This document shows positions 2,195 to 49,403 of a stretch of 63,706 nucleotides of DNA, in pieces. Each line of letters starts with the position of its first letter. Positions within the stretch are counted from its first letter, which is position 1. Source of the DNA: an uncultured virus (IMG/VR IMGVR_UViG_3300046007_010127) (taxonomy: Duplodnaviria > Heunggongvirae > Uroviricota > Caudoviricetes); the IMG/VR virus record IMGVR_UViG_3300046007_010127; one strand, 5' to 3'. Under the pieces are notes generated by a model. That model made no database searches and had not been told where the DNA came from. It saw only the letters and a list, made by a program, of their open reading frames with translations. A program made the translations under genes and the position numbers.

Positions 2195-3121
2195 ATGAAT
2201 AATATACTATCTTTTAAAGATTTTGTTCTCTTTGAAGACAAAGAGACTAACACAACAAAAAAACTCTTCGATCTTGATAACAAGATGACTTATAAGACCA
2301 TTAAGGATTTAAGAACATCTAAAATAGGAGACAAAAGATACACTTTCTTCTGTGTTGGAAGCGGAATGGAAGCTTATGCAAATTCATTCTTAGAAAAGGA
2401 TAAAGAGAGAGGCGAGGCGCTTCAAAAAATTGCAAACAACAAAGATAAAACATTAGTCTTTAGCGAGCAGGGAATATACGTAGTATCTGAGGCGGTATTT
2501 AACGGACTAGTTTCTCTTTCAACAACTATCTTTACATACGTTCCAGATGGATCTATAACAGCAGGAATTAGTATAACAAGGGTTTTTAAGCTTATTAATG
2601 TTTACTACAATAATAAAGGAAAAGCACCATTCGATAGTATGAAGGAAGATCCGGCAGCAATAGCAAAAATAATAATATCGGATCTTTATAAATTGGCGGA
2701 TTCGTCACCTAAGGCATCAGAGGCGGTATCTGTTTTAACAGTAGCACTTTATAAATCTGCCCCTTCATCATTTAAAACAATACCTAATTTCTTAGAAGAT
2801 TGCGTCTATAATACAGCAAAGGACCTAAATCTAAAATCTGTAAAAGTTGGACAGAATATAGAAGATTTCTATAAAGTAGCACAAAATACTCTGGATAATC
2901 TTAATGTACCAATTCTTAAAAATATAGAAATGGGTCTTGATAAAATGTCTGCTATAATAGAAAAAGGAATAAGAAAGACTAATATATTTTCAACAAAGAT
3001 AGGTAAAGAAGCTGGTGAGGCTTTAAAAGCAGCTCAAGAAAGAATAGCTCCTACAGGTAAAGCTATAGCCTCTAAGAGTAAACCTATATGGGATTCTATA
3101 TTTGGAAAAAAATCGAAATAA
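2195..3121 (+). CDS. Hypothetical protein
   Basis: 308-aa ORF. Confidence 0.75.
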   Translation: MNNILSFKDFVLFEDKETNTTKKLFDLDNKMTYKTIKDLRTSKIGDKRYTFFCVGSGMEAYANSFLEKDKERGEALQKIANNKDKTLVFSEQGIYVVSEAVFNGLVSLSTTIFTYVPDGSITAGISITRVFKLINVYYNNKGKAPFDSMKEDPAAIAKIIISDLYKLADSSPKASEAVSVLTVALYKSAPSSFKTIPNFLEDCVYNTAKDLNLKSVKVGQNIEDFYKVAQNTLDNLNVPILKNIEMGLDKMSAIIEKGIRKTNIFSTKIGKEAGEALKAAQERIAPTGKAIASKSKPIWDSIFGKKSK

Positions 3122-3158
3122 TTCCTGAAATCGTTTTTTTTATTTATGTTAAACCCTC

Positions 3159-3196
3159 TATATTTGTGAAACAAAACAAAAGGAACGATATATAAC
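3159..3196 (+). promoter_or_regulatory. Stacked promoters of tRNA operon 1
   Basis: TATATTTG (3159, Bacteroidota -7 type), GAAAC (3168) with TATAAC (3191), and GATATATA (3187). Confidence 0.55.
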
Positions 3197-3202
3197 AGAT
3201 AT

Positions 3203-3277
3203 ATGAAAAATCTAAACAACATATTACCTATATCATTAAGACCGTCGATAAGACGATCTCTAAAGGTCCTGTGTTAG
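3203..3277 (+). CDS. Leader peptide 1 (MKNLNNILPISLRPSIRRSLKVLC) of the tRNA operon 1 attenuator
   Basis: 24-codon ORF rich in ATA/TTA/TCN/AGA/CCN codons; last codons contain the antiterminator taaaggtcctg (3261-3271). Confidence 0.75.
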   Translation: MKNLNNILPISLRPSIRRSLKVLC

Positions 3278-3297
3278 TTTTCAATATATACTAAACT

Positions 3298-3332
3298 AAA
3301 AAACCGGGACCTTTAAAAGTCCCGGTTTTTTT
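3298..3332 (+). terminator. Attenuator terminator 1
   Basis: ccgggac/gtcccgg stem plus T7; 3305-3315 is complementary to 3261-3271. Confidence 0.85.
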
Positions 3333-3333
3333 A

Positions 3334-3345
3334 TGTTCTTTGAAA
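3334..3345 (+). promoter_or_regulatory. boxA-like antitermination site
   Basis: TGTTCTTTGAAA, resembling rrn boxA; found at the same position in all three tRNA operons. Confidence 0.65.
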
Positions 3346-3350
3346 TAATT

Positions 3351-3439
3351 GGAGAGGTGGCAGAGTTGGTTTAATGCACCTGTCTTGAAAACAGACGTAG
3401 TGAAAGTTACCGGGGGTTCGAATCCCTCCCTCTCCGCCA
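3351..3439 (+). tRNA. tRNA-Ser(TGA)
   Basis: Cloverleaf, loop CTTGAAA, long variable arm, encoded CCA. Confidence 0.95.
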
Positions 3440-3442
3440 ATT

Positions 3443-3516
3443 GGTCCGATAGCTCAGCTGGATAGAGCAACTGCCTTCTAAGCAGTAGGTCGCAGGTTCG
3501 AATCCTGCTCGGATCA
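3443..3516 (+). tRNA. tRNA-Arg(TCT)
   Basis: Cloverleaf, anticodon arm ACTGC-CTTCTAA-GCAGT. Confidence 0.95.
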
Positions 3517-3522
3517 CTATAT

Positions 3523-3598
3523 CGGGATGTAGATCAGTTGGTAGATCGCCTGGTTTGGGACCAGGAGGCCCCAGGTTCGAGTCCTGGTATCCCGACCA
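3523..3598 (+). tRNA. tRNA-Pro(TGG)
   Basis: Cloverleaf, CCTGG-TTTGGGA-CCAGG, encoded CCA. Confidence 0.95.
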
Positions 3599-3599
3599 T

Positions 3600-3673
3600 A
3601 GAGATGTAGCTCAATTGGTTAGAGCACATGCCTTATACGCATGCGGTCACGAGTTCGACTCTCGTCGTCTCTA
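3600..3673 (+). tRNA. tRNA-Ile(TAT)
   Basis: Cloverleaf, CATGC-CTTATAC-GCATG. Confidence 0.85.
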
Positions 3674-3677
3674 CTTA

Positions 3678-3751
3678 GGTCCCTTAGCTCAGTAGGTTAG
3701 AGCAACTGACTCATAATCAGTAGGTCCACGGTTCGAGCCCGTGAGGGACCA
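3678..3751 (+). tRNA. tRNA-CAT, probably Ile2 (lysidine type)
   Basis: Cloverleaf, ACTGA-CTCATAA-TCAGT; GGTCCCT acceptor resembles bacterial Ile2 rather than Met. Confidence 0.8.
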
Positions 3752-3766
3752 CAAAATTAATAATCT

Positions 3767-3847
3767 GCCTGGGTGGTGAAATTGGTAGACACGTTCGGCT
3801 TAAGATCGAATGCGAAATGCGTGAGGGTTCGAGTCCCTCCTCGGGTA
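3767..3847 (+). tRNA. tRNA-Leu(TAA)
   Basis: Type II cloverleaf, TTCGG-CTTAAGA-TCGAA. Confidence 0.9.
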
Positions 3848-3852
3848 CATAT

Positions 3853-3955
3853 ATAAGAGTGGCGGAAGCGAGATCATTTATGATCCGATGGAGAGACGCT
3901 AGGGTGTCATGCCCGAGAACGAAAGTTCATGTTGGTTCAAGTCCAACCTCTTGTA
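3853..3955 (+). ncRNA. Atypical tRNA-like RNA (D-loop hairpin insertion, non-canonical anticodon arm)
   Basis: Acceptor ATAAGAG/CTCTTGT, T-arm GTTGG-TTCAAGT-CCAAC, variable arm GAAC-GAAA-GTTC, extra GATCA-TTTA-TGATC hairpin. Confidence 0.6.
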
Positions 3956-3974
3956 CTTTTTTAATTATAAATAA

Positions 3975-4262
3975 CTATACAGTTAATTTTTCTACCTTAG
4001 CTACTGAATATTTTTTACCCTCTCCGTAATTTCCTCCAGGTGTTTCATTTAAAGTAACTTTAAAATAGTAACCTGAAACTGAATTACTTTTAATAGAGTA
4101 AACAAGATCAGACTTTTGAGTTACTGAATCTATTGATTGCATACCCATTTTAGATGCAACAGTATCGCTAGAAATTATTGATTTTATTTTTTCTGCTGTA
4201 GAATAAAAAGGCGCAGCAGCCTCATTCATTATTTCGTTTTTAAAATCTTCGAATCTTTTCAT
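3975..4262 (-). CDS. Hypothetical protein (MKRFEDFKNE N-terminus)
   Basis: ORF in a two-gene minus-strand unit. Confidence 0.65.
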   Translation of the reverse strand: MKRFEDFKNEIMNEAAAPFYSTAEKIKSIISSDTVASKMGMQSIDSVTQKSDLVYSIKSNSVSGYYFKVTLNETPGGNYGEGKKYSVAKVEKLTV

Positions 4263-4275
4263 TTCTTATTATATT

Positions 4276-4827
4276 TTACTTAGCCTCTTTAATTCTGAAG
4301 TATCCTCGGTGATCGGTTTTACCTGGTTCTACACCATCTTCGAATTTACAATATCCAGTAGAATTAAAGAAGTTCCATTCTTCTCTTCTGCCTTTACTAA
4401 GTTTATCCTGTGGCATTAAAGATCTATTATATTCTTGATTTTCTTGGTTAATTCTCTTATACATTCCATTATAAAATGTAGATGTGCTAAGTAAATTCGT
4501 AGCTTCTTCCATTAATCTTCTATTGATATTATAGTCAAATATAGCCTCATGAATAGAAATCTCTGAAATGCCTCTTCTATAGCTAATCCATTGCGATATA
4601 ATTCCACCATAATTATATGGTGTATAAGCTAAATCCCCTACGTAAAAAAGATTAAAATATGGAGAATTCTCTTTGCTGTGATCGAACAACCTTATGTTAG
4701 TATTAAAATATGGTACAGTTCCTCCGAATTCTTTCATTCTATTATGGAATCCAGGAAGTATCTCTAATGTTATCGATGTGGGATTATTATTTGTATCAAA
4801 TCCTTCGAATAGCTTAATATGTTTCAT
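4276..4827 (-). CDS. Hypothetical protein (MKHIKLFEGF N-terminus)
   Basis: ORF with minus-strand GATATATA at 4832-4839. Confidence 0.7.
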   Translation of the reverse strand: MKHIKLFEGFDTNNNPTSITLEILPGFHNRMKEFGGTVPYFNTNIRLFDHSKENSPYFNLFYVGDLAYTPYNYGGIISQWISYRRGISEISIHEAIFDYNINRRLMEEATNLLSTSTFYNGMYKRINQENQEYNRSLMPQDKLSKGRREEWNFFNSTGYCKFEDGVEPGKTDHRGYFRIKEAK

Positions 4828-4911
4828 ATATTATATATCCATAGTATGATCCATAAATAAGAAACAAAATCTATTATAGGATGTAAAATTGTTAATACAA
4901 AACGTAAGATT

Positions 4912-5604
4912 GTGATTGAAGAATTAAAAGATTTTTATTGGGACTGGATGTCAGATGGAACGGAACAGGGAAACTATCATAAAGAAACCATGATAGGTGA
5001 GATATTTGTCCAAAGAGCCTATGAAAGATTCTTTGAAGTAGATGAGGGAGATATCGTTGTAGATATTGGAGCTAGTGTAGGTCCTTTTACAAAGTCAATT
5101 CTTCATAAAAATCCAAAACACGTATTTTGTTTAGAACCAAGCTATTCCGAATTTAAATGTCTAGTTAAAAATACCATAGGTTACCCTGTTACACAAGTAA
5201 ATAAAGGAATATGGGAAACAAACGGAACGGCTAATAGCGATCAACTATTCGGTGGTGAATCTGTAATGGAAGCTCTAACATTCCAAACGTTTATAGATCT
5301 TTTCTCGATAGAAAAAATAGACTTTCTTAAAACTGATTGTGAAGGGGGTGAGTACGAGATATTCAAAACCGAAAATATAGAATACCTAAAAAATAATGTT
5401 AGTAAAATAACTGGAGAATGGCACTTAAGAAGCCCTGAGAATAAATTAAGATTTAGAAATTTTAGAGATAATATACTTTCACAATTTCAAAAATATGAAG
5501 TTTATTCTGTCGATGGTGTCGACATTAAATGGGATTTATGGAATGAGCATTTTATAGAATATTATGAGGAGATAATATTGTATATAGATAACAGAACCAA
5601 TTAA
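4912..5604 (+). CDS. FkbM-family SAM-dependent methyltransferase
   Basis: VVDIGASVG and IDFLKTDCEGGE motifs. Confidence 0.85.
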   Translation: MIEELKDFYWDWMSDGTEQGNYHKETMIGEIFVQRAYERFFEVDEGDIVVDIGASVGPFTKSILHKNPKHVFCLEPSYSEFKCLVKNTIGYPVTQVNKGIWETNGTANSDQLFGGESVMEALTFQTFIDLFSIEKIDFLKTDCEGGEYEIFKTENIEYLKNNVSKITGEWHLRSPENKLRFRNFRDNILSQFQKYEVYSVDGVDIKWDLWNEHFIEYYEEIILYIDNRTN

Positions 5605-5626
5605 GACTGTGGTTATGAGATATATA

Positions 5627-6067
5627 TTATTTGTTTTCGATAAGAAGCTCTCCAAGAACTTCTATCTTGCCGACAAGCTCCTGGAATTCCACTTGAGTGA
5701 TATTCATAGAGTTTCTAGTTGCTTCATAAAGATCAGTTAATAGATCATCATACTCTCCTTTAAGATTATCCATATCTAATTCCCCGTCTACACTCTTTTG
5801 ATAGTATGGAAGTTTAACATGAAAATGGTGATATGTTAATAAAGCATCTCCACCTTTTTCTTTTGCAGCCTTGGATATTTTTGTTGCGCCAGCTAATCTA
5901 TTCTCTGAAAATTCTTGTAGTGTCTCTTTTTCTTCGTTTACATCGGAATTTTCTTTTACACAGTTAGGTACAGGTCTACCGTCTTTATCCTTGGTTCCAA
6001 TTTGCTTGTAACCAGCCCAGCAAGGTCCTTTTTTTTCGAGTATAAATTTGTCGTAATCTAGTATCAT
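5627..6067 (-). CDS. Hypothetical protein with PCWxGY...VPNCV motif seen in large-phage proteins
   Basis: ORF; minus-strand GATATATA at 6072-6079. Confidence 0.7.
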   Translation of the reverse strand: MILDYDKFILEKKGPCWAGYKQIGTKDKDGRPVPNCVKENSDVNEEKETLQEFSENRLAGATKISKAAKEKGGDALLTYHHFHVKLPYYQKSVDGELDMDNLKGEYDDLLTDLYEATRNSMNITQVEFQELVGKIEVLGELLIENK

Positions 6068-6104
6068 ATCCTATATATCACGAAAGATATATACATTACC
6101 TAAT

Positions 6105-6470
6105 ATGAAAAATATTTATACCTATAACGACTTCATTAATGAAGGCAAAGATCCAAAGAAAGGTTCAGGTAAAAAACCTAAAGGATCCGGTAGAAGACTT
6201 TACACGGATGAAAATCCGGACGATACTGTACCGATAAAATTCAGAACTAAGGAAGATGTACAGGAAACTGTTAACAGCAGTGCTTTTAAATCTAAAACAC
6301 ACCAAAGACAATCTCAGATTTTAAATCTAATAGAACAAAGGCTTCGTGTTGCAGTAAGAGAAGCAAAAGATCCATCCACTAAGAGAAGACTAAAGAGAGC
6401 ACACGAATATGCTTTACTAAAATGTGAATCTTCTAAAAGAAAAACCCAGAGGGTTAAAGATAACAGGTGA
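6105..6470 (+). CDS. Basic hypothetical protein (GKKPKGSGRRLYTDENP motif)
   Basis: ORF; GATATATA at 6086. Confidence 0.7.
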   Translation: MKNIYTYNDFINEGKDPKKGSGKKPKGSGRRLYTDENPDDTVPIKFRTKEDVQETVNSSAFKSKTHQRQSQILNLIEQRLRVAVREAKDPSTKRRLKRAHEYALLKCESSKRKTQRVKDNR

Positions 6471-6492
6471 CTCTATTAATAATAAGAATTCG

Positions 6493-6861
6493 ATGAATAA
6501 TCATATAAAGATAACCGGACTAGGAATAGAAATATACAATAAAGATTTTGTATCTATGAAATGGGGCAAGGCATTCGATATGGCTTTAAGATTAGGAGAT
6601 GGATGGAGACTTCCTACCATAGAAGAAATGAGAATAGTAAGATCCATAAGAGATGTAGGAGGAATTGGAAATTTTCCTCGATATAAAGAATTTGACGATT
6701 ATTATTACTGGACATCTAGAGAGGGGGAAACATTAAACTCAAGAACAACTTTAGCAGACGGATCTGTTGCTTACGCATATTTTTTTGATATAGGTGATGG
6801 GGAATTTTCACACAATAAAAAATCATACGAACTTAGGGTTAGGTTTGTCAGAGATATATAG
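6493..6861 (+). CDS. DUF1566/Lcl-like domain protein
   Basis: DGWRLPTIEEM, YYWTS and terminal VRFVR motifs; start moved to ATG 6493. Confidence 0.6.
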   Translation: MNNHIKITGLGIEIYNKDFVSMKWGKAFDMALRLGDGWRLPTIEEMRIVRSIRDVGGIGNFPRYKEFDDYYYWTSREGETLNSRTTLADGSVAYAYFFDIGDGEFSHNKKSYELRVRFVRDI

Positions 6862-6864
6862 AAT

Positions 6865-7716
6865 ATGCCAACATCAAGACCTTTCGCATATAATCCAACA
6901 CAAGCAACAATTTCTGGAACTACAAATGTAGGTACATTATGCGTAGGTGTATCTGCTTTAAACTATGGTGCAAATCCAGGAGGACTAACTTGGTGGATGG
7001 GTCCGGACGAGGATAATTCTTATATAATAGCTAAAGATGTACCATCCGGCGATTTTCCAACACCAGTAGGTAGTATAGGTACTGTACAATTCTGGGGATG
7101 CTCTAATACAGATGAAGCTTTTAGAAGTACAGTACAAATAATAAGCGGTATTACACAAGCATCTGCTTCAGCTGCTAATGCTTGGTTAACAGCAAATAAC
7201 TATTGGACTAATCGGGATCCGTATCTTGCAGGCTTATACAAAACAACTTACAGTGGTTATTTTAATGATAATGTTAGTTTCTTTGCAACAGCAACTCCTG
7301 CATCTGTAGGCGGAAATCCTGCTACATCAGTACAAACTACTTCTATATTTGAACCTTCTCAGAATGATGGAGAAAATTTCAGTTGTCAGTGGTTAGGATA
7401 TTTCAAACCAACCACTACAGAAACATATACTTTTTTCACATCATCTGATGATGCGTCATATGTGTGGATAGGTTCAAATGCACAGACAGGTTTTACCACA
7501 GGAAACTCTACAGTTAATAATGGAGGACTTCACGGAACTTTAGAGAAATCAGGCTCAATTGCATTAACTGCTGGTACATATTATCAAATAAGAATACAAT
7601 TTGGAGAACTAAGTGGAGGCGATGTTATGACATTTAATTTCTCAACCCCTACTATCTCGAAAACAACCAATGTAACAGGACTAGTATTTTATAATCCGTC
7701 CACTAATGGATTCTAA
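6865..7716 (+). CDS. PA14-domain protein (putative carbohydrate-binding virion protein)
   Basis: FSCQWLGYF...YTFFTSSDDASYVWIG...NNGGLHG...LTAGTYYQIRIQFGE. Confidence 0.8.
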   Translation: MPTSRPFAYNPTQATISGTTNVGTLCVGVSALNYGANPGGLTWWMGPDEDNSYIIAKDVPSGDFPTPVGSIGTVQFWGCSNTDEAFRSTVQIISGITQASASAANAWLTANNYWTNRDPYLAGLYKTTYSGYFNDNVSFFATATPASVGGNPATSVQTTSIFEPSQNDGENFSCQWLGYFKPTTTETYTFFTSSDDASYVWIGSNAQTGFTTGNSTVNNGGLHGTLEKSGSIALTAGTYYQIRIQFGELSGGDVMTFNFSTPTISKTTNVTGLVFYNPSTNGF

Positions 7717-7752
7717 TTCAATAATTAGATATATAGACTATAAAAAAAAGAA

Positions 7753-8031
7753 ATGAAATACCTAAAAAAATATCAAGACAATAATCGCAATATTAACGAA
7801 GGGTTTTGGGATTCCATTTTTGGAAAACCCACTGTTGATGACGCTGCTCACGATTCTCTTAGAGGCCAAGGATTTAGTCACAGAGGTAAAGACGAAGAAA
7901 ACTACATCATGTTCCAGGGACAAAAATTTTATCCTGAGCAGATTCAGTATGATGACGTTTACTCGACTAAGCCTATCCCAAGAGTAGAGAATGGGATGCT
8001 TATAGTTGCTAATCCTGCTTGGAATCTATAA
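7753..8031 (+). CDS. Hypothetical protein
   Basis: ORF; GATATATA at 7728. Confidence 0.65.
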   Translation: MKYLKKYQDNNRNINEGFWDSIFGKPTVDDAAHDSLRGQGFSHRGKDEENYIMFQGQKFYPEQIQYDDVYSTKPIPRVENGMLIVANPAWNL

Positions 8032-8059
8032 AAAAAATAAAAAATCATTTTTTTATACT

Positions 8060-8090
8060 GAAACTTTTATCTACTTTTGTAGTATATAAA
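8060..8090 (+). promoter_or_regulatory. Stacked promoters of tRNA operon 2
   Basis: GAAAC (8060), TACTTTTG (8072), AGTATATAAA (8081). Confidence 0.5.
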
Positions 8091-8110
8091 CAAAACAACA
8101 AAAAAATTCA

Positions 8111-8188
8111 ATGCAACAATTTCTAAATATCGGAATAGATGCTCAGCTCGATCTTCTTGAGGATATTGGAAAGTGTCAGAGGAAATAA
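8111..8188 (+). CDS. Leader peptide 2 (MQQFLNIGIDAQLDLLEDIGKCQRK) of the tRNA operon 2 attenuator
   Basis: 25-codon ORF with a GAT/CTN/GAG block; antiterminator tgtcagagg (8174-8182) in the last codons. Confidence 0.72.
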   Translation: MQQFLNIGIDAQLDLLEDIGKCQRK

Positions 8189-8209
8189 ATTTATATAAAG
8201 ATACAATTT

Positions 8210-8238
8210 AAACCTCTGATAACCTCAGAGGTTTTTTT
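8210..8238 (+). terminator. Attenuator terminator 2
   Basis: aaacctctga-taacc-tcagaggttt plus T-run; 8213-8221 is complementary to 8174-8182. Confidence 0.85.
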
Positions 8239-8247
8239 GTTTTTATA

Positions 8248-8259
8248 TGTTCTTTGAAA
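8248..8259 (+). promoter_or_regulatory. boxA-like antitermination site
   Basis: TGTTCTTTGAAA, identical to 3334-3345. Confidence 0.65.
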
Positions 8260-8263
8260 TTAT

Positions 8264-8335
8264 GGTCGGTTCATCTAGGGGTCAGGATACAAGGTTTTCA
8301 TCCTTGTCACACGGGTTCGAATCCCGTACCGACTA
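8264..8335 (+). tRNA. tRNA-Glu(TTC)
   Basis: Cloverleaf, CAAGG-TTTTCAT-CCTTG. Confidence 0.92.
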
Positions 8336-8336
8336 C

Positions 8337-8404
8337 AAAGGGGGAAAATAGTTAGAAGGGCCTTTCCTGAAAGATGGCACGCTAGGCCCGTATTTGAACC
8401 CTTT
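8337..8404 (+). ncRNA. Candidate small structured RNA between tRNA-Glu and tRNA-Asp
   Basis: Nested stems aaaggg/cccttt, aaata/tattt and gggcct/aggccc. Confidence 0.35.
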
Positions 8405-8410
8405 AATTTA

Positions 8411-8484
8411 GGTCCGTTAGTAGAGTTGGTCACAACGCCGCCCTGTCACGGCGGAGGTCATGGGTTCGAATCCCATACGGACCG
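8411..8484 (+). tRNA. tRNA-Asp(GTC)
   Basis: Cloverleaf, CCGCC-CTGTCAC-GGCGG. Confidence 0.95.
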
Positions 8485-8491
8485 CAAACAT

Positions 8492-8564
<73 letters not shown>

Positions 8565-8568
8565 CTAA

Positions 8569-8649
8569 GCCCAGGTGGTGAAATGGTATACACGCTAGTC
8601 TTAGGAACTAGTGACGTAAGTCGTGAGGGTTCGAGTCCCTCCCTGGGTA
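8569..8649 (+). tRNA. tRNA-Leu(TAG)
   Basis: Type II cloverleaf, CTAGT-CTTAGGA-ACTAG. Confidence 0.93.
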
Positions 8650-8651
8650 CT

Positions 8652-9221
8652 ATGAAGATCATATTTTTAGATCATGATGGAGTAATTTGTCTTTCACAAC
8701 AATTTGGGGGACGCTACAAAAAGCAGGCTAAGGCTAGAACAAAGCTTTCTCAAAGTGTGATGGATTTTCCGGTTGGAGCTAGATTTGATAACTTCGATAA
8801 GAAAGCTATTAAAGTTCTAAACTTAATCTTAGAAGAGACTGGAGCTGAAATAGTTGTTTCTTCAGATTGGAAGAACTGGGCAAATGTTGAAGAGATGGGA
8901 GAATACTACGAACAACAGGGTATAATTAAAAAACCTATCGACTTCACTCCTAGAGAATACACAATGCCCGAAAAACAAGAATGGCATCCAGACTGGGATT
9001 TAGAAGCATCAAGAACTTTAGAAATCCAAGAATGGCTAAAAGATCATCCAGATGTTACTCATTGGGTAGCAATAGATGATTTAGACATGAGCTTTAAAGA
9101 AGTATCAAATAATAGAAGTGGTACTGGATGGGGATTAACAAATTTTGTACATACCCCGAGTGTCACTGAGGGGATTAAAAAATCAGGAATTAAGCATAAA
9201 ATCGTTAAATTTTTACTCTAA
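8652..9221 (+). CDS. HAD-superfamily phosphatase (Swiss-Army-knife RNA-repair type)
   Basis: IIFLDHDGV, IVVSSDW and WVAIDD motifs; true start is ATG 8652, after tRNA-Leu. Confidence 0.8.
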   Translation: MKIIFLDHDGVICLSQQFGGRYKKQAKARTKLSQSVMDFPVGARFDNFDKKAIKVLNLILEETGAEIVVSSDWKNWANVEEMGEYYEQQGIIKKPIDFTPREYTMPEKQEWHPDWDLEASRTLEIQEWLKDHPDVTHWVAIDDLDMSFKEVSNNRSGTGWGLTNFVHTPSVTEGIKKSGIKHKIVKFLL

Positions 9222-9290
9222 TAGTTAAAATCTTTTTTTTAGCCCGTTATATTTCATTAATTCTGTGATATAATTAATAAAGTTATTATT

Positions 9291-9668
9291 ATGGAAAATG
9301 AAAAATTAAAAAGAGTTACTATGAGGGTATCTCACGAAAATCCTGATGCACAGGTAAATTTCACAGCTATTGGTATCGGAAAGAATCAAAAAGAAGCAGC
9401 TATTTTTGCTTTGGGATCTTTCCTAAATGTTATGAATGGTGTAAGTGATGAAGGGGTATCAGATTACAATGAAGCTTTGGAAATGGTTAACGACCAATAT
9501 TCGGAGGAGGAAGTGAGTTTTTTTATCGAGAAAAAATTAGAAGCAAATGCTGATGCTTTCTTCAATGCTTACGAATCAACTAAAGTGGATTATGTTTGGG
9601 ACGAGGTAGAAGGAGAAGAATCAATAGGATTAATCCAAGAAATGGAAGTAGTAGAGGAAAAATATTAA
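9291..9668 (+). CDS. Acidic hypothetical protein
   Basis: ORF. Confidence 0.7.
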   Translation: MENEKLKRVTMRVSHENPDAQVNFTAIGIGKNQKEAAIFALGSFLNVMNGVSDEGVSDYNEALEMVNDQYSEEEVSFFIEKKLEANADAFFNAYESTKVDYVWDEVEGEESIGLIQEMEVVEEKY

Positions 9669-9708
9669 AAAATATCGGAAATCATTTTTTTATTTAAAAA
9701 AGATATTG

Positions 9709-9746
9709 TACTTTTACGAAACTATTCTGGAAACAGGATATATAAT
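9709..9746 (+). promoter_or_regulatory. Stacked promoters of tRNA operon 3
   Basis: TACTTTTA (9709), GAAAC (9718) with TATAAT (9741), and GATATATA (9737). Confidence 0.5.
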
Positions 9747-9754
9747 TAAGAAAA

Positions 9755-9862
9755 ATGAAAAACTGTAGTAAACATAACATCATTCGCATGAACAGTCAGA
9801 TTAATGGCTGCTATCAAACGGTGGCGTTTTGGGCTAAGGGGAAAGAACCCGATCGAAGCTAA
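9755..9862 (+). CDS. Leader peptide 3 (MKNCSKHNIIRMNSQINGCYQTVAFWAKGKEPDRS) of the tRNA operon 3 attenuator
   Basis: 35-codon ORF with codons for all ten downstream anticodons; antiterminator gatcgaagct (9851-9860). Confidence 0.75.
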   Translation: MKNCSKHNIIRMNSQINGCYQTVAFWAKGKEPDRS

Positions 9863-9890
9863 TACAGAAAATCATATTTAGATATTTTGG

Positions 9891-9922
9891 AAAAGGCTTT
9901 GATTAACTTCAAAGCCTTTTTT
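9891..9922 (+). terminator. Attenuator terminator 3
   Basis: aaaaggctttga-ttaact-tcaaagcctttt; 9895-9904 can pair with 9851-9860. Confidence 0.85.
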
Positions 9923-9925
9923 ATT

Positions 9926-9937
9926 TGTTCTTTGACA
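9926..9937 (+). promoter_or_regulatory. boxA-like antitermination site
   Basis: TGTTCTTTGACA. Confidence 0.65.
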
Positions 9938-9950
9938 TACTGGAAAAAAT

Positions 9951-10023
9951 GGTACCGTAGCTCAGTTGGTAGAGCACTAGACTGAAAATCTAGGTGTCGC
10001 CGGTTCGATTCCGGCCGGTACCA
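9951..10023 (+). tRNA. tRNA-Phe(GAA)
   Basis: Cloverleaf, CTAGA-CTGAAAA-TCTAG. Confidence 0.95.
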
Positions 10024-10094
10024 CAATACTAAACAAGAAATTGTCACACTAAACTAATCATGTTTAGTATTACAAAAACAAGTTTAGTAAAAAT

Positions 10095-10168
10095 GATCTC
10101 GTAGCTCAGTTGGCTAGAGCACCTCACTTTTAATGAGGGAGTCGAGGGTTCGAGCCCCTCCGGGATCA
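10095..10168 (+). tRNA. tRNA-Lys(TTT)
   Basis: Cloverleaf, CCTCA-CTTTTAA-TGAGG. Confidence 0.95.
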
Positions 10169-10169
10169 C

Positions 10170-10306
10170 AAAGGTTGATTGGGGAAAGATGATGCCCATA
10201 ACATGAGAGTGTATATCGGTTGGTGTCATTGGAGTTGGGAGATATACACCTAAGTAAAGCCAATCGTAAAAGAGAATGTCCACGCAACCATCTTTCTCTT
10301 TCCTTT
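10170..10306 (+). ncRNA. Candidate ~137-nt structured RNA between tRNA-Lys and tRNA-Trp
   Basis: Stems aaagg/ccttt, ggggaaagatg/catctttctct and gtgtatatc/gatatacac. Confidence 0.5.
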
Positions 10307-10310
10307 AAAT

Positions 10311-10383
10311 GCGTCCTTAGCTCAATTGGTAGAGTGTTGGTCTCCAAAACCAAAGGTTGTAGGTTCGATCCCTACAGGGCGTG
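10311..10383 (+). tRNA. tRNA-Trp(CCA)
   Basis: Cloverleaf, TTGGT-CTCCAAA-ACCAA. Confidence 0.93.
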
Positions 10384-10390
10384 CTAAAAA

Positions 10391-10463
10391 GGTCCCGTAG
10401 TTCAATGGATTAGAATGGAACACTACGGATGTTCTGATCCTGGTTCGAGTCCAGGCGGGATCT
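10391..10463 (+). tRNA. tRNA-Arg(ACG)
   Basis: Cloverleaf, GAACA-CTACGGA-TGTTC. Confidence 0.93.
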
Positions 10464-10474
10464 CAAACAAATAA

Positions 10475-10545
10475 GGTCGTGTGGTCGAGTGGTTAGGCGC
10501 TAGTCTGCAAAACTAGTTATACTGGTTCGATTCCAGTCACGACCT
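10475..10545 (+). tRNA. tRNA-Cys(GCA)
   Basis: Cloverleaf, CTAGT-CTGCAAA-ACTAG. Confidence 0.93.
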
Positions 10546-10565
10546 CTAAAAAATAAAAAGTGCAT

Positions 10566-10697
10566 ATGGATAAAAGAGTTATAGTAAAAGGAAGTTTTGA
10601 TTCAAGTAGAGAAAATTTAAGAAGAGAGGGAATTAGCTTTACAATTAGTAAAGCCTTTCTCAAAAAAATTAAAAGAATACTTAAAAGAGGAAAGTAA
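10566..10697 (+). CDS. Possible small basic protein (43 aa) inside the tRNA array
   Basis: ATG after an A-rich stretch; MDKRVIVKGSFDSSRENLRREG...KRGK; stop overlaps the tRNA-Ser 5' end. Confidence 0.35.
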   Translation: MDKRVIVKGSFDSSRENLRREGISFTISKAFLKKIKRILKRGK

Positions 10698-10774
10698 TCC
10701 TGGATGGTGATGGGGCTCGCCTGCTAAGCGAAGTGTACCTTAATTGGTATCTGGTTCGATTCCAGTTCTTTCCG
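10689..10774 (+). tRNA. tRNA-Ser(GCT), atypical D arm
   Basis: CTCGC-CTGCTAA-GCGAA, variable arm TACC/GGTA, T-loop TTCGATT, acceptor GGAAAG/CTTTCC. Confidence 0.75.
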
Positions 10775-10780
10775 CAACAT

Positions 10781-10857
10781 TGACATGTAGCTCAGTTGGT
10801 TAGAGCGTTGATCTGATACGTCAAAGGCCGAAGGTTCGAATCCTTCTATGTCAACCA
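10781..10857 (+). tRNA. tRNA-Ile(GAT)
   Basis: Cloverleaf, TTGAT-CTGATAC-GTCAA, encoded CCA. Confidence 0.9.
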
Positions 10858-10863
10858 TTATTT

Positions 10864-10939
10864 AGTCTCTTAGCTCAGCTGGTAGAGCGTCTGCCTTACA
10901 TGCAGAATGCCGGGGGTTCGATTCCCCTCTGTCACCCCA
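10864..10939 (+). pseudogene. Chimeric tRNA-Val(TAC) with an unpaired acceptor stem (His-like 3' end)
   Basis: D, anticodon and T arms intact; 5' AGTCTCT cannot pair with 3' CTGTCAC-C-CCA. Confidence 0.7.
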
Positions 10940-10949
10940 TTTTATATAA

Positions 10950-11029
10950 GCCGATGTGGCTCAGTGGCGACAGCACCGCTTTTGTACAGCGGTATACAAA
11001 CATCGGGGGTTCGAGTCCCTCCATCGGCT
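10950..11029 (+). tRNA. tRNA-Thr(TGT), enlarged variable region
   Basis: Acceptor GCCGATG/CATCGGC, CCGCT-TTTGTAC-AGCGG, 12-nt variable segment. Confidence 0.85.
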
Positions 11030-11035
11030 CTATAT

Positions 11036-11108
11036 TGTCCTGTAGTGTAATTGGCAACACGTCTGATTTTGGTTCAGAAGACTCCAGGTTCGAGCCCTGG
11101 CGGGACAA
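11036..11108 (+). tRNA. tRNA-Gln(TTG)
   Basis: Cloverleaf, TCTGA-TTTTGGT-TCAGA. Confidence 0.92.
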
Positions 11109-11161
11109 CTTATTTTATGAAATAAAAAAAAAGATCTACAATATAAATAATAAAACATAAT

Positions 11162-12289
11162 ATGAAGAATGATATATGCTTGGTAATGATCGTAAAGGAT
11201 GAGGAAGAAGTTATTACCAGATGTTTAAATTCGGTTTGTTCTATTATAGATTATTGGGTAATAGTTGATACTGGGTCTGAAGATAATACTAAAGAAGTTA
11301 TTAGGGATTTTATGGAGGAGAAAAATATCCCCGGAGAATTATATGATAGAAAATGGGTAGATTTTTCTTATAATAGAAACGAAAGTTTAGAATTAGCAAA
11401 TGGTAAATGTAATTACATGCTAATAATGGATGCGGACGATCTATTGGAAATATCTGATTATTCTAAATTCAACAATTTATCTCTTCATTCTTATAATATA
11501 CCTATTTTATTGGACGGGTTAGAATATAAAAGATTGCAGATATTAAAATCCGGGTACGAATGGAAATATGAAGGGGTATTACACGAATACATAAAAATAC
11601 CCGATATAGAAAATTATACGGAGGGTATTATAGAGGGATCATGTATAATAGCAAATGCTAGCTATCCTGAAGGGCATCCAAAATACCTAGGAGATGGCGA
11701 ACTTTTAATGAGATTCATAGATGATCCAGAAATATCGGAGGATCTTAAAAGAAGGTATACTTTCTATTGTGGATTAAGTTTTATGTGGGGAAGAGATTTT
11801 AATAAAGCAATAGAGATCTTTAAGAAAAGATCAGAAATTGGTGGATGGCCGGAAGAAATATACGTTTCTCTGTGGTATCTAGCAAAATTAAAAGAAAAAA
11901 TGGGAGATGATGAAGATTCTATAATTAACTCGTATTTAAAAGCATGGGAATCTAGACCAGGGAGACACGAAGCAGCATACGATCTTCTTAAATTTATTTA
12001 TCCAAAAAAAAGATGGTATCTAGGATTTATTATAGCTAGATCATGTATATCTTCTAGCGGATTAAACGATTCACTATTCGTTGATAAAAATATAAGAGAT
12101 TGGGGGATTTATAATATTTATTCTCAATATGCTTACAATTGCGGATTTATAACTGAAGCTATAGGTGCGACCGAGAGATTAATAAATTCTAGTTCTTTTA
12201 ATATTATCCCGGATGATGAACAGAAAAAAATAATAAATAACTTAGAAGTATATGAAATTAGTTTAATACAAAGCTATACTCATATATAA
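11162..12289 (+). CDS. GT2 glycosyltransferase with TPR-like C-terminus
   Basis: CLVMIVKDEE, IVDTGSED, DFSYNRN, MDADD and GVLHE motifs. Confidence 0.88.
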   Translation: MKNDICLVMIVKDEEEVITRCLNSVCSIIDYWVIVDTGSEDNTKEVIRDFMEEKNIPGELYDRKWVDFSYNRNESLELANGKCNYMLIMDADDLLEISDYSKFNNLSLHSYNIPILLDGLEYKRLQILKSGYEWKYEGVLHEYIKIPDIENYTEGIIEGSCIIANASYPEGHPKYLGDGELLMRFIDDPEISEDLKRRYTFYCGLSFMWGRDFNKAIEIFKKRSEIGGWPEEIYVSLWYLAKLKEKMGDDEDSIINSYLKAWESRPGRHEAAYDLLKFIYPKKRWYLGFIIARSCISSSGLNDSLFVDKNIRDWGIYNIYSQYAYNCGFITEAIGATERLINSSSFNIIPDDEQKKIINNLEVYEISLIQSYTHI

Positions 12290-35102: not shown

Positions 35103-35675
35103 ATGGCAGGATTACCACATTATACGAGTTCTAAGGCTTCGGTTAACAAATTCGAACCGATTTTCCTCAACCAGTTTGAGGTTACCATTACTCCGCCAAC
35201 GGCTATTCCAGTACAAGCTGGAAACCCTGGCGCAGCTAATATATTATTGGAACAAGTTACTAGAGTATCAGGTCTTCAAGTAGATCAAAATGCTGGAGAG
35301 ATCACACAGCAATACAAATTTGCTAAAAGATACTACTCTGGTGCTGCTCCTCAAAGAACTGGTTTAGATGTTGACATAGAATTTGAAATTAACCTTAACG
35401 AGAATAATTCGATGTATGTTTTTAAAACATTACGTCAATGGTCTGATTTAATTTACAATCCTCTTACTGGGGCAATGGGACTTAAGAAAGACTATACAGG
35501 TAATATACTCGTTAACGTTTTCAACAAACAAGGAGATATCTTTAGAAAAATAAACCTAAGAGATTGTTTCCCAATGACTCCAATACCAGAAATGGCATTA
35601 AACTACACACAAACTTCAATCTACAAATTGAATTTAACTTGGGCAGTTGACTATTTCGACGACGTATTTATATAA
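35103..35675 (+). CDS. Tail tube protein (gp19-like), copy 1
   Basis: Follows sheath; EPIFLNQF, LRQWSDLIYNPLTG and CFP motifs. Confidence 0.8.
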   Translation: MAGLPHYTSSKASVNKFEPIFLNQFEVTITPPTAIPVQAGNPGAANILLEQVTRVSGLQVDQNAGEITQQYKFAKRYYSGAAPQRTGLDVDIEFEINLNENNSMYVFKTLRQWSDLIYNPLTGAMGLKKDYTGNILVNVFNKQGDIFRKINLRDCFPMTPIPEMALNYTQTSIYKLNLTWAVDYFDDVFI

Positions 35676-35686
35676 AAAAATAAAAA

Positions 35687-36265
35687 ATGGCAGGATTACC
35701 ACATTTTACAGCATCAAAAGCAGCAGTACAATTATACGAACCGGTATATCTTAACCAGTTTGAGGTTATAATACAGCCTCCAGTTGGTGTTGCTTTAGAA
35801 CAAGGGAACGGAGGAAGAACTCTTTTAGTAGAAAACGTGCTTTCAGTTTCTGGATTAGCAGTTGATAAAAACCCAGGTATAGCGGAGCAAAGATATAAAT
35901 TCGCTAGAAGAAGATACGCTGCAGGTGCAGTTGATGATACTGGTGTTAAGGTTAGGATTGAATTTGAAACAAACCTTAACGACAACAATAGCAACTATGT
36001 ATTTAAGGCATTAAGACAGTGGTCAGATTTAATATACAACCCTCTAACAGGAGCAACTGGTATTAAATCAACTTACGCAGGAGGAACTTATATACTAATT
36101 TCTATATTCAATAAACAAGGAGACGTTTTCAGAAGAATTAAATTAGTAAACTGCTTCCCCGTAGATCAGATTAAATCACTGGATTTGGATTATACTAACG
36201 GTACAACACCTTATAAGATCCCACTATCTTTTAGAGCGGATTATTTCGAAGACGTTTTTAATTAA
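35687..36265 (+). CDS. Tail tube protein (gp19-like), copy 2
   Basis: Clear paralog of 35103..35675. Confidence 0.8.
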   Translation: MAGLPHFTASKAAVQLYEPVYLNQFEVIIQPPVGVALEQGNGGRTLLVENVLSVSGLAVDKNPGIAEQRYKFARRRYAAGAVDDTGVKVRIEFETNLNDNNSNYVFKALRQWSDLIYNPLTGATGIKSTYAGGTYILISIFNKQGDVFRRIKLVNCFPVDQIKSLDLDYTNGTTPYKIPLSFRADYFEDVFN

Positions 36266-48810: not shown

Positions 48811-49403
48811 TAGATCCATTTAAAAAAAGATTTGAAGAATATAAACTTTCTATATCCGGACTTTCCTCACCACAGGAAGAATCTTTCATGTTTTGGTTTA
48901 ATAAATTCGTAAATAAAAACTCCCAATTCAATCCTCTAGATTTTTTATCAGGGAAAGTTTATTCGTTTGAATACAACGATAAACTAGAAGGAGGTAAGAA
49001 ATTTATAAATAAAAGACCTGTCGTGTTTTTTACAGGATACGACAACTATGAGAGAAAAAATATATTTAGCGGATTAGATCTAATACTAATACCACCTATT
49101 TTCAGAATGTATTTTTTTGAAAGAGTACAAAGCGTTTTCCAAGATCAGATTGAAAGAAATATAAGAAAAGATGAAAATGGGGAGGGAAGAGATCAATCTC
49201 CTTTAAAAACTGATTATCAAATAATGGAGTCCATATTAAAAGGAATCCCATATAAGCACTCATATAGATCTTGGGATTTAAAAAAAGTTAGGGGCGTTGT
49301 GGAAATTCCTTTTGAAGATTGGACTAGAATAGTATATCTTGATACTAGGTCAATTGAAGGGACCCAGCTTATTGAGATATATAATAAAAATTCACAAGTC
49401 TAA
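48807..49403 (+). CDS. DNA end protector (T4 gp2-like)
   Basis: GKVYSFEY, PVVF, GLDLILIPPIFR; next to gp4. Confidence 0.55.
   Translation: MIDPFKKRFEEYKLSISGLSSPQEESFMFWFNKFVNKNSQFNPLDFLSGKVYSFEYNDKLEGGKKFINKRPVVFFTGYDNYERKNIFSGLDLILIPPIFRMYFFERVQSVFQDQIERNIRKDENGEGRDQSPLKTDYQIMESILKGIPYKHSYRSWDLKKVRGVVEIPFEDWTRIVYLDTRSIEGTQLIEIYNKNSQV

Follow-up and report, generated by a model that had tools for sequence, protein, structure and literature searches.

Putative leader-peptide attenuators upstream of the tRNA arrays of an uncultured phage

Introduction

How might a phage that carries a large set of transfer RNA (tRNA) genes match their transcription to its needs? Genes for tRNAs are usually treated as constitutively expressed or as controlled by growth rate. 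The question is raised by a stretch of 63,706 nucleotides (nt) from an uncultured virus (IMG/VR record IMGVR_UViG_3300046007_010127), hereafter called the window, in which three tRNA arrays each follow a short open reading frame (ORF), an intrinsic terminator and a boxA-like motif. A first-pass annotation of this DNA, made from its letters alone, had proposed that the three leaders are attenuators that sense tRNA shortage and control all three tRNA operons of the phage. It also suggested a scan of related tRNA arrays, a permutation test of leader codons against anticodons and a comparison of terminator and antiterminator folds, and the outcome of each is described below.

Given these results, we consider it probable that the window carries three ribosome-mediated (leader-peptide) transcription attenuators, one before each of its tRNA arrays. 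The part of the earlier proposal that concerns the window is therefore supported, and its extension to all tRNA operons of the phage reaches beyond the stretch that we covered. The anatomy of the units, their recurrence, and the co-variation both between codons and tRNAs and between pairing RNA strands are established here, in every case by comparison and computation.

Three units with one layout

The units examined (positions 3159–11109, plus strand) present their parts in identical order, and their sequences are unrelated. The first begins with a promoter −7 box (TATATTTG, 3159–3166) of the Bacteroidota type TAnnTTTG, located 37 nt before the ATG of a leader ORF of 24 amino acids (MKNLNNILPISLRPSIRRSLKVLC, 3203–3277), wherein codons 7–17 are all cognate to the array that follows. 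The last codons of this ORF include a putative antiterminator strand (3261–3271) that can form 11 base pairs (bp) with positions 3305–3315 of an intrinsic terminator (3298–3331) with a 13-bp stem and a U-tract. Beyond the terminator are the boxA-like sequence TGTTCTTTGA (3334–3343) and an array (3351–3848) for Ser-TGA, Arg-TCT, Pro-TGG, Ile-TAT, Met/Ile2-CAT and Leu-TAA.

The second unit has its −7 box (TACTTTTG) at 8072–8079, 32 nt before the ATG, followed by a leader ORF of 25 amino acids (MQQFLNIGIDAQLDLLEDIGKCQRK, 8111–8188) whose candidate antiterminator strand (8174–8182) pairs over 9 bp with 8213–8221, within a terminator (8210–8234) composed of a 10-bp stem and a U-tract. Another copy of TGTTCTTTGA (8248–8257) precedes the array of Glu-TTC, Asp-GTC, Met-CAT and Leu-TAG (8264–8650). 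For the third unit, we assign by analogy with the other leaders a promoter-like −7 box (TACTTTTA, 9709–9716), which agrees with the motif at seven of eight positions and lies 39 nt before the ATG of an ORF of 35 amino acids (MKNCSKHNIIRMNSQINGCYQTVAFWAKGKEPDRS, 9755–9862). Its predicted antiterminator strand (9851–9860) spans the last codons and the first base of the stop codon, and pairs over 10 bp with 9895–9904 in a terminator at 9888–9923 (14-bp stem, U-tract). The third copy of TGTTCTTTGA (9926–9935) is followed by an array (9951–11109) for Phe-GAA, Lys-TTT, Trp-CCA, Arg-ACG, Cys-GCA, Ser-GCT, Ile-GAT, a partial Val-like tRNA, Thr-TGT and Gln-TTG.

This thrice-repeated arrangement of an ORF, complementarity to its own terminator, the terminator itself, exact TGTTCTTTGA and a tRNA array is as the first-pass annotation had described it, including leader ORFs of 24–35 codons and complementarity of 9–11 nt. 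Its estimate that the terminators lie about 22–30 nt downstream needs correction, as the measured distance from stop codon to terminator stem is 20, 21 and 25 nt for leaders 1, 2 and 3, respectively. Each −7 box is embedded in an A/T-rich stretch, 32–39 nt ahead of the leader ATG. The 20–30 nt between terminator and first tRNA are occupied by boxA, and the tRNA starts 6–15 nt after it.

Our custom detector found the three terminators, which are G+C-rich hairpins, to be the sole intrinsic terminators on the plus strand between 2900 and 11400, and a consensus scan also recovered them. All tRNAs of the window are behind the three leaders: 18 called by ARAGORN, together with Ser-GCT (10689–10775), which is called only at a relaxed ARAGORN threshold and scores 40.3 bits in Rfam, and the partial Val-like tRNA (10871–10928), which was detected with Rfam. 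A fourth exact copy of TGTTCTTTGA, at 22888 on the minus strand, was considered as a further boxA and rejected; it is taken as a chance occurrence, since an SbcD-like gene encoded on the other strand contains it.

Folding the leaders gives both of the structures that attenuation calls for. When the whole leader is folded, the terminator forms, and when the 3′ arm of the terminator is withheld, the last ORF codons pair with its 5′ arm; this is true of all three window leaders. The additional upstream hairpin of trp-type attenuators (the 1:2 hairpin) is seen in the minimum free energy fold of leader 1.

Codon content of the window leaders

Matches between leader codons and array tRNAs in the window were counted by ordinary wobble rules over codons 2 to −8 (negative numbers count back from the end of the ORF), and binomial p values were computed against the codon usage of 58 long window ORFs. 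Of the 16 codons counted in leader 1, 11 are read by its own array and one by each of the other two arrays (p = 1.4e-4). The corresponding figures for leader 2 are 8 of 17 for its own array versus 1 of 17 and 5 of 17 for the others (p = 0.012), and those for leader 3 are 17 of 27 versus one of 27 for each of the others (p = 0.0033).

The choice among synonymous codons follows the same division, and every instance noted in the earlier annotation was recovered. Ser is encoded by TCN in leader 1 (3/3) and by AGY in leader 3 (3/3), and Ile by ATA in leader 1 (3/3) and by ATY in leader 3 (3/3). Arg is mostly AGA in leader 1 (2/3), and is CGN at both positions in leader 3, whereas 66 of the 686 Arg codons in the genes of the phage are CGN. 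TTA is restricted to leader 1, and the Leu codons of leader 2 are all CTN (4/4). By their codons, the three leaders appear to divide the code among themselves, with leader 1 covering Ile-ATA, Leu-TTA, Pro, Ser-TCN and Arg-AGA, leader 2 covering Asp, Glu and Leu-CTN, and leader 3 covering the rest by way of AGY, ATY and CGN. However, the p values given above are post hoc, and the real test therefore had to use other genomes.

Recurrence in other phages and in cellular genomes

IMG/VR was searched with three pattern scans, for a T-tract plus the motif, for the motif plus a tRNA T-loop, and for both combined, which gave at least 117, 120 and 123 loci, respectively. All IMG/VR counts of sites, leaders and clusters in this report are counts among the matches listed, found through one boxA variant. 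The first scan gave mostly noise, in that a tRNA follows the motif in 6 of its 117 listed loci. A blind pipeline considered every hairpin plus U-tract with a tRNA on the same strand within 140 nt, and recorded the longest ATG-initiated ORF ending near the hairpin. This procedure yielded at least 152 terminator-to-tRNA sites, at least 107 of them distinct. Of the 103 sites preceded by 200 nt or more of sequence, 95 have an ATG-initiated ORF of 18–45 codons that ends 10–45 nt before the terminator, versus 12.0 expected from dinucleotide shuffles.

Individual loci show the same relation between leader and array. A leader with the sequence MKNLMNINPQQHPQTLEWGFYA (L293) lies ahead of tRNAs for Pro, Pro, His, Pro, His, Gln, Gln and Gln; another, MTIITNIERREERETYSHRI (L128), is ahead of Glu-TTC and Arg-TCT; and a Leu-rich leader (L330) is ahead of four Leu tRNAs. 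One phage (L282) has three leaders that partition its arrays: MFVTTIKTEEEKI precedes Thr, Glu, Glu, Ile, Lys and Lys tRNAs, MKNFLYTLVDCVAHFDSWL precedes Asp, Leu, His, Cys, Tyr, Phe and Val, and MKRLSSRLWQQSGSNPSRPGEL precedes Pro, Ser, Gly, Trp, Ser, Arg, Arg, Asn, Leu, Leu, Gln and Gln.

The same leader–terminator–tRNA units are found in LR756500.1, a public 462-kb record of an uncultured huge phage. On its minus strand, a leader rich in His, Glu, Val and Trp (MKAISVHIIHIWEHLLEEVNINIM; L502, at about 118.8 kb) is ahead of His, Glu, Val and Trp tRNAs, and an Asn-rich leader (L501, at about 87.3 kb) is ahead of Asn-GTT. At a further locus (L222, minus strand, about 100–300), the leader MQLHGCTYWILSNVEKNFPQADSITHIPGRS uses all 20 amino acids, and downstream of it are a terminator, a second promoter box, boxA and tRNAs.

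Database searches that started from the window itself were less productive. A megablast search of GenBank phages with positions 3100–11200 gave tRNA matches only and no near relative, and a blastn search of GenBank phages with leaders 1 and 3 gave no match. The nearest record, a fragment of 38.6 kb (G001), is without the boxA motif.

When the same scan was applied to 185,579 species genomes, the terminator–motif–tRNA layout was found mainly before the Thr-Tyr-Gly-Thr(-Trp) operon of Flavobacteriales, and any leader ORF of this kind was present at only 3 of 29 cellular terminator–boxA–tRNA sites. A G+C-rich contig from a cellular assembly (L475, 180–460) carries MIMNEMHALLSLSYSESSSRGASA, a terminator, the same boxA, and tRNAs Glu-TTC, Ser-CGA, Leu-TAG and Tyr-GTA, and therefore the layout is not confined to AT-rich Bacteroidota phages.

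Leader codons co-vary with the tRNAs of their own arrays

The ORF rule was passed by 96 of the 107 distinct sites, and these leaders fall into 59 clusters at 50% peptide identity. Our test set comprises the representatives of 44 clusters whose arrays have at least two tRNAs and are not cut by the end of the locus; the remaining 15 clusters were left out. Each array was taken by rule to end at the next leader, a 2-kb gap or the end of the locus, and the arrays contain the tRNAs that ARAGORN detects, some being missed. The null distribution was obtained by permuting arrays among the 44 leaders 20,000 times.

At the amino-acid level, leaders match their own arrays at a fraction of 0.627, versus 0.433 (standard deviation 0.017) for permuted arrays (z = 11.5, 0/20,000). 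The 25 arrays that serve eight or fewer amino acids give 0.526 versus 0.296 (z = 9.7). Taken one by one, 17 of the 20 amino acids show enrichment at p < 0.01, with Ile and Lys at p of about 0.04. The match is stronger when codons in the sensing zone (2 to −8) are compared with anticodons: 0.661 for own arrays versus 0.373 for permuted ones (z = 13.0, 0/20,000). Omitting the four representatives that are at least 40% identical to a window leader leaves z at 12.1, and the result is therefore not driven by the family from which the idea arose. The 10 representatives without the exact search motif, whose selection hence did not depend on it, give 0.615 versus 0.365 (p = 0.0098).

These results bear on the possibility that the leaders act as a general gate on translation capacity, sensing only the availability or speed of ribosomes with a codon content that is incidental. 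The antiterminator would be left free by any stall or by the absence of translation, nearly all amino acids are represented in some leaders (such as L222, with all 20), and the 1:2 hairpin that would enforce termination by default is weak (see below). A gate of this kind has no need for codons that match their own array rather than others at a z of 13, for synonymous choices that follow the isoacceptor present, or for several leaders that partition the codon sets of one phage, as in the window and in L282. We therefore regard it as unlikely.

The signal is also specific to the reading frame. The same leader DNA read in frames +1 and +2 gives matches of 0.453 and 0.397, respectively. This argues against direct sensing of tRNA by the leader RNA in the style of T-box riboswitches, without a ribosome. 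Such RNAs would follow the same logic, wherein the status of a tRNA chooses between terminator and antiterminator. However, the codon signal is spread over 10–27 codons within an ORF that runs from ATG to stop, and no T-box is among the 36 Rfam matches obtained at E values up to 1 between 2900 and 11400. Direct sensing is accordingly judged to be exceedingly improbable. Among the same matches, hits to the Thr_leader, L20_leader and Termite-leu families were rejected as evidence of membership because they score far below the gathering thresholds, the best of them being Thr_leader at 32.3 bits versus 55.

Synonymous codon choice was examined by comparing arrays that hold only one of two isoacceptor classes. 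The ratio of CTN to TTR codons for Leu is 24:7 versus 5:22 according to the class present (p = 1.5e-5), that of CGN to AGR for Arg is 13:5 versus 4:14 (p = 0.0067), and that of ATY to ATA for Ile is 29:4 versus 3:5 (p = 0.007). Pooled over the split families, the counts are 82:22 versus 19:47, which corresponds to an odds ratio of 9.2 (p = 1.3e-10).

Because synonymous choice follows the isoacceptor that is present, the function of a peptide is unable to explain it. We therefore consider it highly improbable that the leader peptides are themselves the functional product, for example as small regulatory or membrane peptides, and that the match with tRNAs is a by-product. The conserved N-terminus is what such a role would lead one to expect: leaders of many phages start with M-K-N or M-K-T, with Lys at position 2 in 28 of the 44 representatives. 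The peptides are otherwise very diverse, and their seven C-terminal codons are constrained at the level of RNA to pair with their own terminator. The M-K-N/T start does not track the arrays, and may reflect a signal for efficient initiation or common descent.

The codon signal has a well-defined place within the ORF. Matches reach 0.68–0.86 at codons −8 to −16, versus about 0.42 expected, and remain above expectation farther upstream. No match signal is seen in the last seven codons, which form the antiterminator strand (0.30–0.55 versus 0.42–0.48 expected), or at codons 2–3, which are mostly Lys and then Asn or Thr.

Leader ends are complementary to their own terminators

If the ends of the leaders serve as antiterminators, each should be complementary to its own terminator in particular. 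Duplexes between a leader and the 5′ arm of its own terminator have a mean energy of −13.8 kcal/mol, versus −8.6 kcal/mol when arms are swapped among leaders (z = −17.5, 0/20,000). Relative to the stop codon, the leader strand that pairs has median limits of −19 and −5 nt, and the terminator hairpins have a mean energy of −15.8 kcal/mol over the 59 leaders. Four predictions of attenuation were thus borne out on independent leaders, namely those concerning reading frame, isoacceptor, the loss of the match over the last seven codons and complementarity to the own terminator, which supports the interpretation first offered for the window.

Promoters and boxA motifs of the leaders

Within the window, neither a scan for the sigma-70 consensus (34 hits versus 29.3 expected) nor a count of TAnnTTTG over the whole stretch (72 versus 72.5 expected) departs from chance, and because of the latter only the position of TAnnTTTG relative to leader ATGs across phages is informative. 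The motif ends within 70 nt upstream of the ATG, and mostly 18–49 nt upstream, in 36 of 58 leaders. Hits number 37 in 4060 nt before the ATGs, four in 5286 nt of ORF and one in 1922 nt between stop codons and terminators, so that the density before the ATG is about 12 times that within ORFs.

Two sets of cellular loci indicate the identity of the motif after the terminator. A T-tract followed by TGTTCTTTGA occurs at six loci after the 3′ end of 16S ribosomal RNA (rRNA) and before Ile and Ala tRNAs, in the 16S–23S spacer, and at 22 loci before the Thr-Tyr-Gly-Thr operon, mostly in Flavobacteriales. On this basis, TGTTCTTTGA is an rRNA-type boxA that is also present on stable-RNA operons of Bacteroidota. 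It is not an obligatory part of the units, given that the exact motif is absent from 10 of the 44 leaders, several of which have no boxA at all. The boxA, often extended to TGTTCTTTGACATATTGG, is also seen right after promoter boxes that have no leader, and between tRNAs inside arrays, in many phages of IMG/VR (L135, L175, L215 and others).

In the Flavobacteriales operon (L379, 2960–3035; L413, 3060–3130, minus strand), a conserved −7 box, CTACATTTGC, abuts a hairpin with U-tract that is followed by boxA. Transcripts initiated from this box may begin within the hairpin arm, and thereby bypass the terminator.

Could the window terminators be ordinary insulators, behind which the tRNAs have promoters of their own, with the small ORFs being separate mini-genes or chance frames? 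The Flavobacteriales arrangement, with its promoter box against the hairpin and no leader ORF, offers a precedent, and TAnnTTTG boxes are located after the terminator in 7 of 59 leaders. In the window units, no such box follows the terminator, where the short space is filled by boxA. Moreover, chance frames are hard to reconcile with ORFs at 95 of 103 sites when 12 are expected, and insulation leaves the codon match, its cut-off at −8 and the complementarity of leaders to their own terminators unexplained. Taken together, the evidence renders the insulator explanation very unlikely.

Proposed mechanism and its weak points

In the mechanism we propose, a host-type promoter would start a transcript whose first-encoded element is a test ORF of 24–35 codons. 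The middle of this ORF (about codon 4 to −8) would be written in codons read by the downstream tRNAs, and its last seven or so codons would serve as one strand of an antiterminator, competing for the terminator 5′ arm located 20–25 nt farther on. A ribosome that reaches the stop codon would cover this strand, such that the terminator folds and transcription ends before the tRNAs. If a ribosome is held on a sensing codon for which tRNA is scarce, uncharged or cut, with its A site at −8 or upstream, the strand would remain free to pair with the 5′ arm as it emerges, and the terminator would be read through. Polymerase would then meet the rRNA-type boxA and transcribe the array; boxA, carried by readthrough transcripts only, might protect the long untranslated array from termination.

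The expected outcome is negative feedback on decoding capacity, exerted separately for three codon sets, and the loop would be self-limiting because the sensing codons are those read by the downstream tRNAs. That a stall should lead to readthrough follows from the geometry of ORF, antiterminator and terminator. We infer from sequence that the ORF is translated, which way the switch operates, what boxA does and what the physiological trigger is.

A number of observations count against attenuation as we describe it, or at least against its strictest form. The 50%-identity clusters on which our statistics are based are not completely independent phylogenetically. For Met and Arg, the 44 leaders give no enrichment at the amino-acid level, and the split of Ser codons (TCN:AGY, 16:6 versus 7:6) is not significant (p = 0.29). 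The upstream 1:2 hairpin is weakly supported, at −7.8 kcal/mol versus −6.9 kcal/mol over 59 leaders (z = −3.3). Some arrays also have an unregulated route to expression, as indicated by the additional promoter-like box between terminator and tRNA in the seven leaders mentioned above. Within the window, leader 1 contains non-cognate codons (three CTN codons for Leu and one CGA), and leader 3 retains codons for Asn, Tyr, Gly, Ala, Met and His though array 3 in the window is without those tRNAs. The lone RNA run that shares words with the stretch (share 0.05) yielded only cross-mapping tRNA contigs and three low-depth 151-nt pieces, and is uninformative on transcript starts, ends and expression.

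Moreover, leaders do not track recent gains and losses of tRNAs. In 10 disjoint homologous pairs, the amino acid of an extra tRNA is more frequent in the leader whose array has that tRNA in 8 cases, less frequent in 2 and equally frequent in 11 (p = 0.055), and all 8 positive cases are from pairs at 68% identity or less.

With attenuation as the preferred reading, one can ask what shortage the leaders would report. They might constitute a codon-resolved, inducible device for counter-defence or takeover, which senses the host tRNAs that are limiting and switches on their exact replacements within one round of leader translation. We offer this idea tentatively, and are inclined to doubt it. Under such a scheme, host anticodon nucleases, phage-induced shut-off of the host, or a mismatch between host tRNA supply and the AT-rich codon usage of the phage could be the cause of the shortage. 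The earlier annotation likewise named anticodon nucleases, or else starvation, as what the attenuators might counter. If the takeover idea were true, the leader peptide could reveal the tRNA threats that a phage lineage has faced.

A gap in array 3

The third array can be compared with two related loci (L272 and L292), with which the window aligns at 84–86% identity up to position 10926, inside the Val tRNA. The alignment with L272 picks up again at 11008, inside the Thr tRNA. About 0.7 kb with Asn, Tyr, Gly, Ala, Met and His tRNAs is present in these relatives and absent from the window, where the junction (10866–11030) leaves the partial Val-like tRNA and a 'Thr' tRNA of 81 nt. The leader 3 peptide is identical in L292, and with the fuller array of the relatives all 27 codons of its sensing zone are cognate. 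Either the window phage recently lost those tRNAs or the stretch is mis-assembled there by assembly collapse; both could account for the junction.

Other features of the arrays were seen in passing. An RNA encoded at 3849–3960, 3′ of tRNA-Leu, is cloverleaf-like with a good T-arm and is possibly a non-canonical tRNA; Rfam and ARAGORN at default settings make no call there, and a very relaxed threshold gives Pro-AGG with an intron. The spacer between tRNA-Phe and tRNA-Lys (10025–10094) folds as a long hairpin (−15.3 kcal/mol, z = −4.8), and a basic ORF of 45 codons lies within array 3 between tRNA-Cys and tRNA-Ser (10560–10697).

The phage and its host

Matches to PHROG families include a UvsX-like recombinase, a DnaB-like helicase, SbcCD, the large terminase, a tail sheath, a late sigma factor and a clamp loader, on the basis of which the window belongs to a T4-like myovirus. 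This is taken as a large freshwater phage, presumably a jumbo phage. Two pairs of adjacent paralogues are also evident, one of portal proteins (49403–51019 and 51029–52678, both phrog_213) and one of tail-tube-like proteins (35103–35672 and 35687–36262, both phrog_32623).

At least half of the sequence words of the stretch are present in 19 DNA runs, which are from lakes or fresh water. By large terminase, the nearest cultured relatives do not exceed 33% identity; Tenacibaculum and Flavobacterium phages are among them. These relatives, the boxA type and the freshwater runs together suggest a host from the Bacteroidota. Tenacibaculum phage PTm1 and Flavobacterium phage MaF61 gave no tRNA hits, and Sphingomonas phage PAU has seven tRNAs with only 90 nt upstream, too little to accommodate a leader; none of these three thus provides a cultured model.

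Comparison with known systems

Multivalent leader-peptide attenuators are well known from enterobacteria, where they precede thr and ilvGMEDA, and attenuators of this class also serve trp, his, leu, pheA and pheST. The units described here resemble those of amino-acid operons in having a promoter, a short ORF with many regulatory codons, antiterminator and terminator hairpins that exclude each other, a decision that would depend on ribosome position, and the putative sensing of several amino acids. They differ in their targets, which are the tRNAs that decode the sensing codons rather than enzymes or synthetases. In addition, a leader samples up to about 16 amino acids, each at one or a few codons instead of in runs, matching reaches the level of the isoacceptor, and the hairpin that would oppose the antiterminator is weak or absent. 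The units are also borne by phages, with the code divided among the several copies in a genome, and are usually followed by boxA.

T-box riboswitches likewise sense the status of tRNA and switch an intrinsic terminator before translation-related genes. However, a T-box binds one uncharged tRNA through a specifier codon without a ribosome, whereas the sensor in the present units would be an ORF. The antitermination system of rRNA operons, based on boxA and Nus factors, has the same 10-nt motif after a T-tract. In the tRNA units, by contrast, the motif follows a regulated terminator, such that only readthrough transcripts carry it, and it may recruit Nus factors.

Short upstream ORFs can report ribosome stalling to downstream expression in other settings, as exemplified by the topAI upstream ORF of Escherichia coli (PMC12121999). 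Upstream ORFs of the topAI type are reported to respond to antibiotics or peptide-mediated arrest and to regulate protein genes, whereas in the window the stall signal would be codon or tRNA supply and the output tRNA. A paper on pheL (PMC3082878) also concerns a leader-peptide system, and PMC2864571 lists Bacteroid-trp. The first-pass annotation knew of no codon-matched attenuators that drive phage tRNA arrays, and our search of open-access papers and bioRxiv likewise found no description, for phages or for cells, of tRNA genes under the control of attenuation or of leader peptides.

Transcription of tRNA genes in these phages appears to be tied by direct feedback to the speed of ribosomes on the codons that the tRNAs serve. 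This would give a classic mechanism both a new target and a new logic, and would explain how phages with large tRNA sets avoid unneeded tRNA synthesis. The layout is widespread in uncultured large phages, with at least 107 distinct sites in IMG/VR, and its rule is predictive both ways, from leader composition to array content and from array to leader. The leaders are therefore candidates for ready-made, codon-specific sensors in synthetic biology, and provide a lead into phage responses to tRNA-targeting defences. Apart from the weak 1:2 hairpin and the fact that tRNAs are the regulated genes, the units appear to possess all the defining features of leader-peptide attenuators for which we tested, and would thus extend a known mechanism to a new target, the genes for tRNAs.

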